Shown: in pieces, positions 1,307-50,810 of the stretch
How positions within the stretch are numbered: the stretch's first letter is position 1
How the letters are laid out: every line of letters begins with the position of its first letter
From: Octopus vulgaris
Taxonomy: Eukaryota
Direction: 5' to 3'
Length of the DNA: 64,000 bases
Assembly (NCBI GenBank): GCA_951406725.2
Contig: OX597817.1
Coordinates: 99,944,001-100,008,000, forward strand
Notes under the pieces: generated by a model
What the model was told of the DNA's origin: nothing
Database searches by the model: none
The model's input: the letters and a program-made list of their open reading frames with translations, nothing else
Translations under genes and position numbers: made by a program

Positions 1307-46303
<44,997 letters not shown>

Positions 46304-46532: not shown

Positions 46533-46966
46533 TTAAAGAGATGAAAGAAAGAAAAAGTACATTGAATGCATAAATATACAAATAAATATTAACAGGAAAG
46601 AAAAGATTTCCTCTCATATTTAGTATAGAAAGTCAAGTCAATAAACTGTTGAGCATATCTTTTGAATAATAGGCTATTATTTTAATGCATAAATGAAATA
46701 ACAATGAAATACTGTAAAAGGAGAATAAAAAACATGAAAAAAAAAGATTATGATCCAATCAAATCAATGTAAAAAAAAATACATATTATAAGCATCCCCT
46801 GAATTAAGCAATTGGATTCTGTAACATGAAACCTATTTTCTCATTGGTTTTCATACTATAAAGATGTGTTTCAACAAATTTTTCCAGAAAACAAAAAGTC
46901 AACCGTAATTAATAAAAGTGACAAAATAAATTTCAAACATGCACTACAAAGAGAGAGAGTGAGGGT

Positions 46967-47120
46967 GTAATGAATGAGTTTAAGGATAACAAAGAATAGA
47001 GATTATCTGATTTTTTTTTTATTATGCAGTCATTAAAGTTCTTCCAGAAGAACTTTAATGACTGCATAATAAAAAAGTGGATAGTCTCCATTCTCTGTTT
47101 TCCTTAAACTCTTTCATTAT
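46967..47120. repeat. Fold-back palindrome
   Basis: Perfect 30-bp arms (47015-47044, 47047-47076) with a 2-nt loop; imperfect extension to ~75 bp. Confidence 0.9.
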
Positions 47121-47283
47121 TATTTCTTGTTGTATACTGTCAATTTAATGTGACAATAGGGGATTACACCACCGCTGTTTAGCCCTAGGAAGCATCGACA
47201 CTTCCTGTCCGCTTCGACACATTTCCTGTGTCCTTATATATTTACGAAGGGGAGACAAATACCCCCAGCAGCTAGGCCTGCAT

Positions 47284-47328
47284 CTAGGGACACGCATGTT
47301 TCAGGATCTTTGTCCATCATCGGTCTAG
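47284..47328 (-). ncRNA. Type I hammerhead ribozyme motif (CCGAUGA variant)
   Basis: CTAGA-CCGATGA-tGGA(caaaga)TCCt-GAAAC-ATGCGT-GTC-cCTAG. Confidence 0.75.
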
Positions 47329-47536
47329 AGTAGCAGAAGCCTGCTAGCTGCAGATTTACTCTTTATTATAGGCACAATGGCCCGAATTCAGAGGGGACAT
47401 TACAATACAGGACGTGGGGTACATATAATAAAAAAATCAAAAAGTATGGTATGACAATGAATTATTTGTAATGAATTAAATGGAATGGCTTTCGAGCCCC
47501 CCAAAGCTCGTAGTTTCAGTTACACTTACAATTGTG

Positions 47537-47932
47537 TTATTCAGGGCGTTCATTCGTTATGTACGTAAGTAACCTCTCCTGTTCTATAATACTTGGCAAA
47601 CTTTCATACCTAATGTAATGCATTACGCATACAGCTGTATACACATTTTTCAGTTTCATTACTGTCTCTTTTTCTACAATCGCCGCCTTCACTTGGTCAC
47701 CAAAATTTTTTGAATTTAATTTCACTCTAATTAGACTTTTCATATTTGCCAACTTCTTTTCAATTTCCTTGTCCTTCTTGTACAATATTATAGCTTTAAG
47801 ATTTCTTCCTTTTGGTCTTCCTCCTTCCTTACATTTTTCCAGCTGTTCTTCCACTCTTCTATCCCATTCTTCCGTTATCTGACAATTTGAAACTTCACTC
47901 GCTTTCGTTTCTGTATCTTTCTCTTTGTGCAT
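47537..47932 (-). CDS. In-frame 131-aa ORF immediately after the ORF1 stop (K/E-rich, function unknown)
   Basis: TGA-ATG adjacent in the same frame; lies within the ORF1-only element 47356-48998. Confidence 0.5.
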   Translation of the reverse strand: MHKEKDTETKASEVSNCQITEEWDRRVEEQLEKCKEGGRPKGRNLKAIILYKKDKEIEKKLANMKSLIRVKLNSKNFGDQVKAAIVEKETVMKLKNVYTAVCVMHYIRYESLPSIIEQERLLTYITNERPE

Positions 47933-48883
47933 TCAATCCTCCATCTCGTCGGTCAACTTCTTTTTAGCTTTTTTCTTTTTTTGTGTTTTGGATGGTGATT
48001 CCAACCGCGTTCTCTTTCTATCCTCTTTTTCTTCTGTTCTTTCCTTTTCTTTCTCCAACTCGTCACTACTTTCCACATTATCTGTAGTCACGATTTCCTC
48101 TTCCACATTCGCCTTTTGTAGTTCCTCTGTCAAAGCCTCCAGTGTTATCGTTTTCTCTTGTACTTCTCTTTGCGGACACATTTCTTTCATGTGGCCTCTA
48201 ATTTTGCATTTGTAGCACACTGGGGGTCTCCCCTCCACCACAACTCTGAGACGTGTCTCATCGGGGAAGACCAACTCCTCTGGGATGTTATACATGTCTG
48301 GCATGGTTATGTGGACCAAAGCCTGCACCGCATAACCCCACCACTTTACTTCTTTCGACTTTTCTATCTTCAATATCTCAACATTCTCTGTGCAGTTAAA
48401 TATTGTTGCCGCTACAATTCTCTCCATGTTCAGTTCTGGTGCAATTTTACTGATTCTTATTCTCACTGCCCTTTTTCCACAATAGCTAGGTAGTAACACC
48501 CGTTTTTCCGTTTTCAATATTTTCGTGGCGTTCCTCTTCGCTTCATCTTCATTTTTAAAATGAATGACTACTGTTGCATATTTTCTACCTCTATTGTAGA
48601 GGGTAGTTTCTTCTTCAATTTCCTGTAAACATCTCTCGATTTCCTCCGCTTCTGCCACTTCTATTTTCTTCGAAGCCACGCTCCACGTTCTGTATGTTAT
48701 AATACGCTTCTCCGCTTCTTTTGCTTCGTCTTCAGGTGGTGTGACCCTCACACAATCACCCTCCTTCTTGAAGTCGTTGAAGTATTTCTTCAAACTTTCT
48801 TTCTCGACAATTATTTCTTCTAACTGCAGTTCGCTCGCAGCCAGGCCCTTGCCTGCTGCTCCCGCATAAGTTTGGGCTTGCAT
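47933..48883 (-). CDS. LINE ORF1-like protein (RRM-like region, CX2CX4HX4C zinc knuckle, K/E-rich tail), 316 aa
   Basis: TYAGAA N-terminal motif, RGRKYATVVIHF, EGRPPVCYKCKIRGHMKEMCP; open frame; no RT or endonuclease in the element. Confidence 0.85.
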   Translation of the reverse strand: MQAQTYAGAAGKGLAASELQLEEIIVEKESLKKYFNDFKKEGDCVRVTPPEDEAKEAEKRIITYRTWSVASKKIEVAEAEEIERCLQEIEEETTLYNRGRKYATVVIHFKNEDEAKRNATKILKTEKRVLLPSYCGKRAVRIRISKIAPELNMERIVAATIFNCTENVEILKIEKSKEVKWWGYAVQALVHITMPDMYNIPEELVFPDETRLRVVVEGRPPVCYKCKIRGHMKEMCPQREVQEKTITLEALTEELQKANVEEEIVTTDNVESSDELEKEKERTEEKEDRKRTRLESPSKTQKKKKAKKKLTDEMED

Positions 48884-49290
48884 ACTCGGAAAAAAACCTC
48901 CAACAATTCACCATGCCGTAACAGCTTCCACCAACAAATTCGAACTCACAACCGCAATACACAATAACCGTAACACAAAATAACCGACACCAAAAAAACT
49001 GCTAGCTGCAGATATCTGTCTCGACTTCGTAAATATATATATATCTAATTTTCAGTGAAGTTTATTCACTGATCACCAAAATCAGAAATATTAAATTTCT
49101 AAATATATCATAGAGATATGTACGGTGGTGGGGCGATAGAATGGTTGTATACTGTCAATTTAATGTGACAGTAGGGGATTACACTGCCGCTGTTTAGCCC
49201 TAGGAAGCATTGACGCTTCCTGTCGGCTTCAACACATTTCCTGTGTCCTGTGTCGAGACAGATATCTGCAGCTAGCAGGCTTCTGCTACT

Positions 49291-49335
49291 CTAGACCGAT
49301 GATGGGCAAAGACCCTGAAACATGCGTGTCTCTAG
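49291..49335 (+). ncRNA. Type I hammerhead ribozyme motif (CCGAUGA variant)
   Basis: CTAGA-CCGATGA-tGGG(caaaga)CCCt-GAAAC-ATGCGT-GTC-TCTAG; predicted cleavage after 49330. Confidence 0.8.
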
Positions 49336-50464
49336 TTGCAGGCCTAGCTGTTGGGGGTATTTGTCTCCCCTTCGTAAATATATAAGGACACAGGAAATGT
49401 GTCGAAGCGGACAGGAAGCGTTGATGCTTCCTAGGGCTAAACAGCGGTGGTGTAATCCTCTACTGTCATGTTAAATTGACAGTATACCACCATTCTATCG
49501 CCCCACCACTGTACATATCTCTATGAGATATTTAGAAATTTAATATTTCTGATTATTATTTCTCTTCTATTGAAAAGCATAGTCTCTTTAAAGACAACTG
49601 GATCTTCAGGTATTGAGAATGTATGAAGAATAGTTAAACCAACAATTGAAGTACGTAAACTCATGTATGTTAACCAGCATTATCAATCAATAGAAGTGTA
49701 TATTGGTACCTGCTTGAATTATATATCCCCATCAACTAAAAAGTTTGGAAAATTTTTAGTAACTAAACTATATTGTAATCAATAACTATAGAATGAACAC
49801 AGAACTGTATAACTTTTGTATACATTTTGCATAAGATTTTTGATCTGGTGGTTTCATAGTAAATTATTAAATAAATATTCTACAAAACTTTTTTTTTTTA
49901 GAAATGGCAGCTAGATTTCCTACTGTCTGTCAAGAAAGATGTAAAACAAAGTTGAAATGGAGTAGTAGTTCAATCACAATCTGTCTGTCTTTCTCTCTCT
50001 CTCCCCAAAATAGTGGAATAGAGGGAGGGAGAGAGAGAATTAAAGGTACACATTAATAGGTATAGATACAGAATGAGGGAGAGCAAGGGTGATGACAATG
50101 ATGGCATATAAATCATATAGTGCAGGAAGAGATTACAGACATATATTCACAGCAACATTAAATAACAATAAATGTTAATAAAGTGGTCTTTAAATTCCTA
50201 GTCTGGTGTATTTAGAGAAGTGGTTGCCAAATTTTTTGAACCATCGACCCTCTTTAGCCACTTCTTCCACATCTACCTTTAGTCACGTCTACCTCTGCAT
50301 CGACCACCCTCCTCATTTAAAATACCTTAATACCTAACACTACCATACCATATCTTAAATGTGTACTGGGTACTGATGCTGGCAATTAAAATGTTAGCTA
50401 AAATATACATGTACAACAAATTAAGAAATTCTATTGAAGATGACACTTTTTACATTTAAAACTA

Positions 50465-50810
50465 AGTGTGCCAGTGGAATGTTAAAAGCACCCTTTGAGC
50501 GTGATCATTGCCAGGGCCACTGACTGGCTCCTGTGCAGGTGGCACATAAAAACACCATTTGAGCATGGCCGATGCCAGTACAGCCTGGGCACATAAAAAC
50601 ACCATTTGAGCATGGCCTATGCCAGTACAGCCTGACTGGCCCTTGTGCACCCACTACACTCAGAGTGGTTGGCATTAGGAAGAGTATCCAGCTGTAGAAA
50701 CTTTGCCAGATCAGATTAGAAACTGGTGTAGTCTTCTCGCTTGCCAGCCCTCAGTCAAACCGTCCATCCCATGCCAGCATGGAAAGCGGACATTAAACAA
50801 TGATGATGAT
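50465..50810 (+). mobile_element. RTE 3'-end/SINE copy
   Basis: Same family tail with subrepeats and (gat)n. Confidence 0.85.

Follow-up and report, generated by a model that had tools for sequence, protein, structure and literature searches.

How did a 1.64-kb element that encodes only an ORF1 protein come to lie inside a repeat that carries a hammerhead ribozyme? The locus is part of a 64,000-nucleotide stretch of Octopus vulgaris DNA (contig OX597817.1, positions 99,944,001 to 100,008,000; hereafter the window). A sequence-only reading of the window had described its structure, and that description largely holds (Table 1). The minus-strand element has a 5' T-run, an ATG at 48883 and an AATAAA at 47367-47362, within the bounds first proposed. 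The 15-bp duplication on its flanks is exact and cannot be extended at either end, and its reverse complement, the uninterrupted site, occurs only once, in the neighbouring unit. A gap of 17 nt (47340-47324) separates the duplication from the hammerhead core, and the array has its own 12-bp duplication and an inversion, with inverted arms of 227 bp that are 95% identical. The empty site described as preserved is present, but its arm is inverted and 5'-truncated and lacks the upstream promoter-like motif. The same reading offered two explanations: a HAL1-like element that targets ribozyme-bearing repeats, or a ribozyme-processed RNA with a protein cargo. Based on our results, we think it probable that this is an ORF1-only element at the start of an snRNA-type promoter, and that a co-resident LINE of the L1 group likely supplied the ORF2 that inserted it.

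Table 1. Coordinates of the features that make up the locus, numbered from the first letter of the window.
Feature	Position	Strand	Remarks
Outer target-site duplication, left copy	47116..47127		12 bp; bounds the whole repeat insertion
Interrupted 357-bp hammerhead unit, downstream half	47129..47355	-	predicted +1 to +227
First type I hammerhead	47284..47328	-	core CCGATGA at 47323; predicted cut after 47289
15-bp duplication, downstream copy	47341..47355	-	predicted +1..+15 of the unit
ORF1-only (HAL1-like) element	47356..48998	-	1643 bp
Element 3' tail	47356..47382	-	ends ATAATAAAGA plus 4 nt; no poly(A)
ORF1, in-frame remainder	47537..47932	-	131 codons; C-terminal domain predicted folded in intact copies
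ORF1 up to premature stop	47933..48883	-	316 aa; CCHC knuckle at aa 222-238
15-bp duplication, upstream copy	48999..49013	-	predicted 15-nt leader; predicted transcription start at 49013
Interrupted unit, upstream half	49014..49249	-	tail of previous monomer and promoter-like region
ATTTACGAA	49026..49034	-	21 nt upstream of predicted start
PSE-like motif ATCAGTG	49067..49073	-	60 nt upstream of predicted start
Inverted 5'-truncated empty unit	49252..49551	+	no PSE-like motif; terminus is the recurrent 3' end of the family
Empty site within inverted unit	49264..49278	+	
Second type I hammerhead	49291..49335	+	predicted cut after 49330
Outer target-site duplication, right copy	49552..49563		12 bp

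Copies of the element are concentrated at hammerhead units. The element tail has 116 exact matches, in a dispersed family whose full copies are 1.6-1.8 kb. Among 104 junctions, 65 adjoin a hammerhead unit, 14 are in tandem at such sites, one is at U2 +1 and 24 lie elsewhere, against a chance expectation of 0.3% (17/5000 in the null). The share of copies in the unit, which the earlier reading had proposed to count, is thus high, and random loci, which it had set against its own view, do not hold most copies. Several of the 24 junctions elsewhere have clean duplications and no motif. A strict rule that combines the motif with an upstream duplication selects 27 of the 65 hammerhead junctions; 13 of the 65 are truncated at the 5' end, lack the upstream half and show no duplication.

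The insertion base is probably a promoter start of the snRNA type, itself predicted, rather than part of the ribozyme. The motif ATCAGT lies 57-59 nt upstream of U1 (10/10) and 57-61 nt upstream of unoccupied U2 (18/18, one of them ATTAGT), is absent from 12 of 12 U6, and precedes the insertion base by 53-60 nt in several hammerhead families that are unrelated. With a matrix from four U1/U2 promoter types, all 11 hammerhead-family sites score at 53-60 nt (null fractions 0.0001-0.033); the shared motif has 6-7 bases, the matrix comes from four sequences, and +1 was placed by eye in five families. In 33 of 47 full-length motif-bearing junctions, motif and element are 71-76 nt apart. Nine of 35 junctions are 63-70 nt from the motif, two or three of them representing an upstream second motif, which suggests that some subfamilies cut 5-9 nt later. 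The element tail stands immediately before U2 +1 in six matches (control, 0) and immediately before U1 +1 in one real match; the sole U1 case and one U2 case lack the 5' half. In addition, some copies carry foreign leaders that begin at the A of an earlier target (L129/L130/L132, L283 and L006). Because the motif stands at a like distance in U1, U2 and hammerhead families, because some carried leaders begin at the insertion base of an earlier target, and because the U2 and U1 starts are used as well, the promoter start is the likely target. The element apparently has no promoter of its own, and its insertion at an snRNA-type transcription start suggests that it likely borrows the one found there. 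By eye and unscored, ATTTACGAA resembles ATTTGTGAA upstream of U1 in position and letters. We disregarded transcription by Pol III, given the T-runs at the start of the elements and the absence of the motif from U6.

The candidate partner is an autonomous L1-group LINE of 5.4-5.5 kb with an endonuclease, RT, zf-RVT and a CCHC ORF1, whose closest solved relative is human L1 ORF2. By its architecture it is a putative Tx1-clade element. It has its tail (the last 10 conserved bases), insertion base and duplication size in common with the ORF1-only element. Its 30 sites comprise 20 at hammerheads, three at U2, three at a leader plus next element, one other and three unparsed; by script, 26 of the 30 are at hammerhead, U2 or leader sites, as found with a query that included 25 nt of unit A. 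The LINE also occupies U2 +1 and, in a single case, U1 +1. An autonomous LINE sharing both ORF1 and 3' tail had been suggested as something to look for: the short tail is indeed common to the two, but the ORF1s are just 30% identical (over 201 aa, E 3e-34), with invariant residues in common. The ORF1-only copies form an ORF1 clade separate from the LINE, and two partner copies gave no blastn match to the element, only short 5' and 3' motifs being common. Since these short terminal motifs are all that element and LINE have in common, the partnership is one that we infer; mobilization in trans by the ORF2 of the LINE is likely. The element would thus function like HAL1, with an origin that appears independent and older rather than that of a deletion derivative.

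The ORF1 of the element is under purifying selection, judging from dN/dS values of 0.08-0.25 among 29 ORF1 cores, a sample of copies with open cores only, which biases the values downward. Comparison of copies indicates that full-length ORF1 is about 450 aa and that the window copy is cut to 316 aa by a premature stop, a TGA at 47935-47933 after which the frame is open for 131 further codons. A sense codon stands at this position in 17 of 18 matched copies, and intact copies encode 450 and 463 aa. The 316-aa frame first described is therefore real but a truncated form. Its description as an RRM/zinc-knuckle protein is borne out for the CCHC knuckle, the sole Pfam match; the RRM-like part is a look-alike, with a language-model resemblance to ZCCHC3-type RNA-binding domains (0.90) and an alpha/beta structure model, and a profile search against solved structures matched zinc knuckles alone and no RRM. 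Homology to ORF2 lies upstream of only one of the 104 tails, in a chimera (L231).

The hammerhead unit matches a non-LTR retrozyme in having a type I hammerhead, with predicted self-cleavage, in a short tandem non-coding monomer. The monomer of about 357 bp is dispersed and forms partial tandems, with 769 exact matches to the family-A core. A type I fold is supported by covariation, although an Rfam scan for hammerheads gave nothing at the gathering threshold or at E<=5. Over 52 units, 93.7% of cells are paired, and two-sided changes in the stems number 115 compared to 35.5 in shuffles, with slid controls at 24-53%; relatedness among the 52 units inflates these figures. The window core is CCGATGA instead of CTGATGA (U4-to-C). 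Outer duplications of 12-15 bp bound 11 of 23 loci (the window, L003, L009, L020, L036, L047, L049, L051, L057, L059 and L285), and most of the loci without one end in (TA)n. The inverted truncated arm and the duplication round the whole insertion are the Penelope-type signature; no PLE reading frame adjoins a unit in the sequence next to 288 loci. Four contig sets presumed to be RNA and three others, all from runs that are not recorded as RNA, cover unit and element, with no indication of start, end, strand or circle.

We propose that the unit is a non-coding retrozyme, which would owe its dispersal to Penelope-type machinery and its transcription to a Pol II promoter of the U1/U2 type located upstream. 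It could copy that promoter only because read-through transcripts would span from ribozyme to ribozyme. Target-primed reverse transcription would nick near +1 and duplicate about +1..+15, as the pattern of duplications suggests, leaving the element co-oriented and directly behind the promoter. The host promoter would then transcribe the element with a 15-nt host leader, which the carried leaders point to. Selection on ORF1 is consistent with an element that supplies its own ORF1 protein and uses a foreign ORF2. The site may be recognized via the promoter-bound factor SNAPc instead of DNA sequence, with ORF1 as a candidate tether, and occasionally the retrozyme machinery may move the whole composite elsewhere.

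A different form of guidance, which we consider unlikely, is that the endonuclease reads loose sequence round ATC or that flanking RNA pairs with the target; the motif would then merely mark sites at which copies get transcribed and survive as masters. A degree of sequence preference may exist, given that 10 of 13 targets start with ATC. Subfamilies show a partial link to single target families and carry subfamily-specific 3-7 nt beyond the tail, the deeper cuts of some subfamilies would fit, and co-transcribed target RNA is said to raise specificity in other LINEs (PMC4494074, in the part available). However, the targets are poorly alike past the third base (mean identity 34%) and include U1 and AGT-starting sites, a well-supported clade of three copies (L020, L015, L017) occupies different targets, and carried 5' leaders do not match the currently occupied site. 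Survival of masters, in turn, cannot account for most dead-end copies being at the site. It is still harder to credit, and we give it very little weight, that the ribozyme fold, the cut RNA or an R-loop itself attracts or processes the element. In most targets the hammerhead lies 19-38 nt beyond the tail, where it could end read-through RNA, but the spacing from tail to core varies twofold whereas that to the upstream motif is tight, and U1 and U2 have no ribozyme.

The cargo explanation, in which most copies are element and unit copied jointly through ribozyme-processed RNA, seems to us quite improbable as the main route. Duplications differ from one target family to another, members of one ORF1 subclade are found in different target families, a single subfamily occurs both in different units and at U2, and 24 copies lie outside units. 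Only 44 of the 769 family-A hammerheads are preceded by an element tail (725 are not), and the closest relatives of the window copy are 91-94% identical, with no close twin. Joint copying nevertheless appears to occur in a minority of composites, with Penelope-type inversions: the inversion joint is inside the element at 7 of the 65 junctions (6 loci). At L285 a 12-bp duplication surrounds the whole composite, the inversion is inside the element, and the arms match at 118/120, 39/39 and 184/185 positions; at L270 the element overlap matches at 245/248 and the unit at 228/235. The 13 truncated junctions with no upstream half could be read in the same way, but 5' halves are missing at U1 and U2 too, so such losses are not specific evidence for co-mobilization, and a search for duplications round 5'-truncated element-plus-unit loci found none. 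Of the two original explanations, the HAL1-like one thus survives in its site preference, varied duplications and partner LINE, with a promoter start rather than the ribozyme as the likely target.

Insertion at promoter starts would give animal LINEs a new target class, the snRNA-type starts common to U1, U2 and ribozyme repeats, and would hint, indirectly, at how invertebrate retrozymes are transcribed. The family is also a natural test of why ORF1-only elements retain a selected ORF1. Passenger and partner ORF1s differ by 70% and yet use the same base, so that an ORF1/ORF2 swap would show which protein chooses the site, and a LINE with a fixed landing point downstream of a defined promoter is relevant to site-directed insertion. 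More tentatively, and with considerable doubt, we speculate that a three-tier chain of parasites lives on one class of host promoter: hammerhead retrozymes that use U1/U2-type promoters, a SNAPc-tethered LINE and ORF1-only lineages. Through an ORF1-SNAPc tether, the LINE would find its way to any promoter start of this class, and old, selected ORF1-only lineages would contribute a tether themselves, one whose C-terminal domain is absent from the LINE. These lineages would steal promoter and ORF2, and might sometimes leave inside a ribozyme-cut circle via Penelope machinery. If true, this chain would be the first animal non-LTR system guided by a Pol II promoter factor, and would explain ORF1 retention in half-elements.

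The literature searched does not describe this combination, and Repbase, Dfam and the octopus repeat library may hold these families; an octopus repeat annotation gives L1-Tx1 and Penelope families and, in the part available, does not mention targets or ribozymes (PMC13282606). The hammerhead unit resembles metazoan retrozymes and non-autonomous Penelope-like elements, which, in the available portions of the reports, have a short non-coding monomer, a type I hammerhead with a short palindromic helix III, and partial tandems that include a truncated arm in inverted orientation (PMC7229834, 10.64898/2026.07.22.740005, PMC8557442, PMC4209133). A U3-A8 core variant is reported there, whereas the octopus family core has U4-to-C. 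For newt satellite 2, an snRNA-type Pol II promoter is on record (cited in PMC2220036); the literature searched, as far as its text was available, reports neither invertebrate retrozymes with an snRNA-type motif nor retrozymes that serve as LINE landing sites.

A single group in octopus takes in U1, U2 and several repeats that are unrelated, unlike Keno and Tx1-Mar. Keno lands inside U2, at about +38, compared to +1 here. Keno (U2) and Tx1-Mar, with its passenger SINEU, are APE-type LINEs with U2 or mobile-element targets, and SINEU is likewise a non-autonomous passenger with the same target; that work also proposed borrowing of flanking promoters. SINEU is non-coding, however, and the available parts of these papers name no hammerhead repeat as a target (PMC4494074, PMC4640811). 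HAL1, or half-L1, is non-autonomous and encodes ORF1 only (PMC5753468, available part). The octopus element is similar in this, in an ORF1 related to that of a LINE and in its flanking duplications, and differs in its CCHC-type ORF1 with 30% identity to its partner's, UTRs that share only short motifs with the partner, no poly(A), a strict site preference and apparently no promoter of its own.

Guidance by promoter factors is known elsewhere. Yeast Ty3 inserts within a few bases of transcription starts, but is an LTR element that uses an integrase at Pol III genes (PMC5911963, available part). A close parallel in arrangement is Dictyostelium TRE5-A.1 and TRE5-A.2, an L1-group LINE and an ORF1-only passenger that are position-specific at small-RNA genes. 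According to the available text of the reports, TRE5-A ORF1 binds TFIIIB and TRE5-A.2 is mobilized in trans (PMC5911963, PMC3159450); in octopus, tethering of ORF1 to SNAPc would be the counterpart. TRE5 elements have their own promoter, insert about 50 bp ahead of Pol III genes and point the opposite way, and A.2 arose by simple deletion, whereas the octopus element lies co-oriented at +1..+15 of predicted Pol II snRNA-type starts.

The ORF1-only element of the window (the passenger) has a preferred class of targets and an autonomous partner LINE. Its family has 354 candidates, and most of the 40 that were scored are full length, at 70-94% identity. The 23-base tail of the element has 116 exact matches (control, 0). 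Among 104 distinct junctions (100 of these matches plus earlier loci, with one incomplete duplicate removed), a hammerhead lies 19-38 nt past the tail in 65, a target leader and then another element follow in 14, the U2 +1 comes right after the tail in 1, and other sequence follows in 24, two of them degenerate units on inspection by eye. Of 5000 random windows, 17 trigger the hammerhead detector. The duplicated sequence differs between target families and individual ORF1 subclades are found in several of them, indicating that most insertions are independent. Thus, of the possibilities raised by the sequence-only reading, clustering of independent insertions at hammerhead units describes most copies. 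Such a tail precedes just 44 of the 769 family-A hammerheads, and therefore the unit is not dependent on its cargo. dN/dS of the passenger ORF1 core is 0.08-0.25 in every dS bin (29 copies, open cores only). A second, distant ORF1-only lineage (the L229 type; Table) accounts for 5 of the 104 junctions and has the tail and sites of the main passenger. At L096, L097, L214, L224, L255 and L275, two to four elements are stacked per site, with 14-20-nt leaders between them.

The 3' end of a LINE occupies the passenger's insertion base before 3 of the 30 best unit loci. Full copies of this partner LINE, which from its architecture we take to be Tx1-like, are 5.4-5.5 kb long with duplications of 14-17 bp. 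They encode an ORF1 of the CCHC type and an endonuclease-RT-zinc ORF2 (frames of 549 and 1089 codons in the copy at L132), and the closest solved relative is human L1 ORF2. The 30 best copies, found with a query that carried 25 nt of unit A, sit before a hammerhead (20), U2 (3), a leader and the next element (3) or other sequence (1), with 3 unparsed. Genome-wide, the tail immediately precedes the U2 +1 in 6 cases (control, 0), five of them LINEs (four within one cluster) and one an ORF1-only element; it precedes the U1 +1 in one real case (3 matches, 2 by chance; control, 1). An autonomous LINE sharing both ORF1 and tail had been envisaged. The LINE exists, but its ORF1 is 30% identical to that of the passenger and the likeness of the tails is confined to the last 10 conserved bases; apart from a short 5' motif, nothing else is common to the two. 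Their ORF1s form separate clades, on long branches that leave the deep order unsure. Chimeras of the two elements are included in the Table.

Removal of the element leaves a 357-bp monomer, whose predicted type I hammerhead sits within a long hairpin (z -4.2). Although Rfam detects no hammerhead in the unit, the type I fold is backed by covariation across 52 units, taken from 62 distinct census sequences and the window's second copy. Two-sided changes occur at all six stem I and all three stem II pairs, and two-sided-change cells number 115 vs 35.5 in shuffles, a figure inflated by kinship of the sequences. Cores vary among units (CTGATGA, CCGATGA and the U3-A8 variant TTGATAA), and the U3-A8 variant is known from PLE hammerheads (PMC4209133). 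The family-A core has 769 exact matches genome-wide (control, 1), and the units are dispersed. Their usual layout is a partial tandem with an inverted arm and a recurrent 3' end, flanked by duplications of 12-15 bp or by (TA)n. Such an insertion pattern has been described for Penelope-like elements (PMC8557442), and animal retrozymes have been argued to be non-autonomous derivatives of these elements (10.64898/2026.07.22.740005). No autonomous PLE was found adjoining a unit at 288 loci. Penelope-like frames (RT and GIY-YIG-like) of at least two kinds are present at L094, L097 and L050, none adjoining units.

All coordinates assigned by the sequence-only reading were confirmed when the sequence of the window locus was re-checked: a 1643-bp minus-strand element bounded by exact 15-bp duplications, an empty site present once, in the inverted arm, a hammerhead core at 17 nt spacing, and a 12-bp duplication enclosing the whole repeat insertion. 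The 316-aa ORF is present too, but a premature stop cuts it short; this position is a sense codon in 17 of 18 matched copies, and the protein of intact copies is 450-463 aa long. Octopus bimaculoides has the sole named homologue of the ORF, at 43% identity. For an intact copy, a structure model built from an alignment of 17 rows, with a mean pLDDT of 70, predicts an alpha/beta N-terminal region followed by the knuckle, an acidic disordered linker at 257-336 and a folded C-terminal domain at 338-445 that the window copy would lack. In the L015 copy this domain (Table) has no Pfam match and is not alignable with the partner LINE ORF1. The composite probably lies within an intron of a 6-phosphofructo-2-kinase gene, adjoining an exon, in a genome of 2.8 Gb, and the element has the orientation of the gene. 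One contig (run X18) connects window positions 46745 and 49980 with different letters between them; it is possibly an allele, or a paralogous join, without the whole composite.

Table. Features of the window and of the loci compared with it
Feature	Position	Strand	Remarks
Exon, 6-phosphofructo-2-kinase gene	window 46175-46303	-	Pfam 6PF2K
Perfect 30-bp inverted repeat, 2-nt loop	window 47015-47076		nested in a weaker 52-bp one; 40 nt off the array's duplication; MITE-like or miRNA-like; scores under Rfam thresholds
PSE-like motif palindrome	window 49052-49072	-	perfect 8-bp palindrome with a 5-nt loop, one arm formed by the motif
Tandem duplication of 47 bp	window 50541-50634		98% identity; within another interspersed repeat
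Second ORF1-only lineage	L229, L250, L222, L263, L232		CCHC ORF1 very divergent; tail and target class as passenger
Chimera	L096 6400-8514		LINE 5' end and ORF1 fused to passenger tail
Chimera	L285 6160-7397		passenger 5' end fused to LINE 3' end
Chimera	L231		ORF2 end fused to passenger tail
LINE C-terminus, restriction-endonuclease type	L034 1-1029		shortly upstream of a unit
ORF1 C-terminal alpha/beta domain (predicted)	L015 ORF aa 338-445		confidently modelled; conserved across passengers

From sequence comparisons, the passenger likely captures an snRNA-type promoter at its insertion base. The PSE-like motif ATCAGT lies 57-59 nt upstream of U1 in 10/10 genes and 57-61 nt upstream of unoccupied U2 in 18/18 genes examined, and was found in 0/12 U6 loci; in the window, the duplication begins 60 nt downstream of it. 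The window's empty arm, cut off 12 nt upstream of the site, has no motif. Looser forms of the motif palindrome (Table) are seen in other hammerhead families and are not evident in U1/U2. U6 genes (L297-L300, L290, L292) differ in their upstream signature, which is ATGCAAAT/ATGCTAAT near -75 and TATA near -30; U1 has ATGCAAAT too, near -43. With a matrix trained on four U1/U2 promoter types alone, a match at 53-60 nt was obtained for each of the 11 hammerhead-family sites examined (null fractions 0.0001-0.033); for five of these sites the +1 was placed by eye. Beyond the third base, the target sequences are 34% alike. The distance from motif to element is 71-76 nt in 33 of the 47 full-length 5' junctions having the motif. 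Several longer junctions additionally hold a leader that belongs to a different target family. It starts exactly at the A of that target, as a remnant of transcription from the former host's +1 would. U2 insertions at L129, L130 and L132 contain a hammerhead-family leader, and the leaders carried at L283 and L006 have a G in front. In newt, a satellite that carries a hammerhead is known to have a Pol II promoter of the snRNA type (as cited in PMC2220036). We propose as a hypothesis that tethering to a promoter-bound factor might be involved.

Several observations argue against promoter capture at the insertion base. The motif is short, its distance is 63-70 nt in 9/35 junctions, 24/104 copies are off target, ATC opens 10 of 13 targets, and the sole U1 case is without its 5' half. 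By a strict rule, motif and duplication occur together in only 27/65 hammerhead junctions; the rest are 6 inner tandem copies and 32 others, 13 of them truncated, with nothing upstream.

In 7/65 junctions (6 loci), the inversion joint is within the element. At L285, a unit is at the end of both arms, the element and unit sequence is 98-100% identical between arms, and the composite is enclosed by a 12-bp duplication; at L270, overlapping segments of the element are identical at 245/248 positions. These inner inversions fit Penelope-type copying of element and unit together, and deletion across a palindrome would be a less economical origin for them. Thus, the idea that element and unit move as one appears to be true for a minority, whereas most insertions are independent. 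At the window copy, the promoter half is complete and the duplication perfect, and no other copy is closely similar; independent insertion is therefore likelier there than joint copying.

U2, other transposons and microsatellites are among the sequences that Tx1 elements are known to target (PMC4494074 and PMC4640811). In the literature searched, we found no description of hammerhead repeats or common promoter starts as LINE targets. The passenger is not derived by deletion from the present partner LINE. It works like HAL1 (PMC5753468) and like TRE5-A.2, an ORF1-only rider of the position-specific LINE TRE5-A, whose own ORF1 binds a promoter factor (PMC5911963 and PMC3159450).
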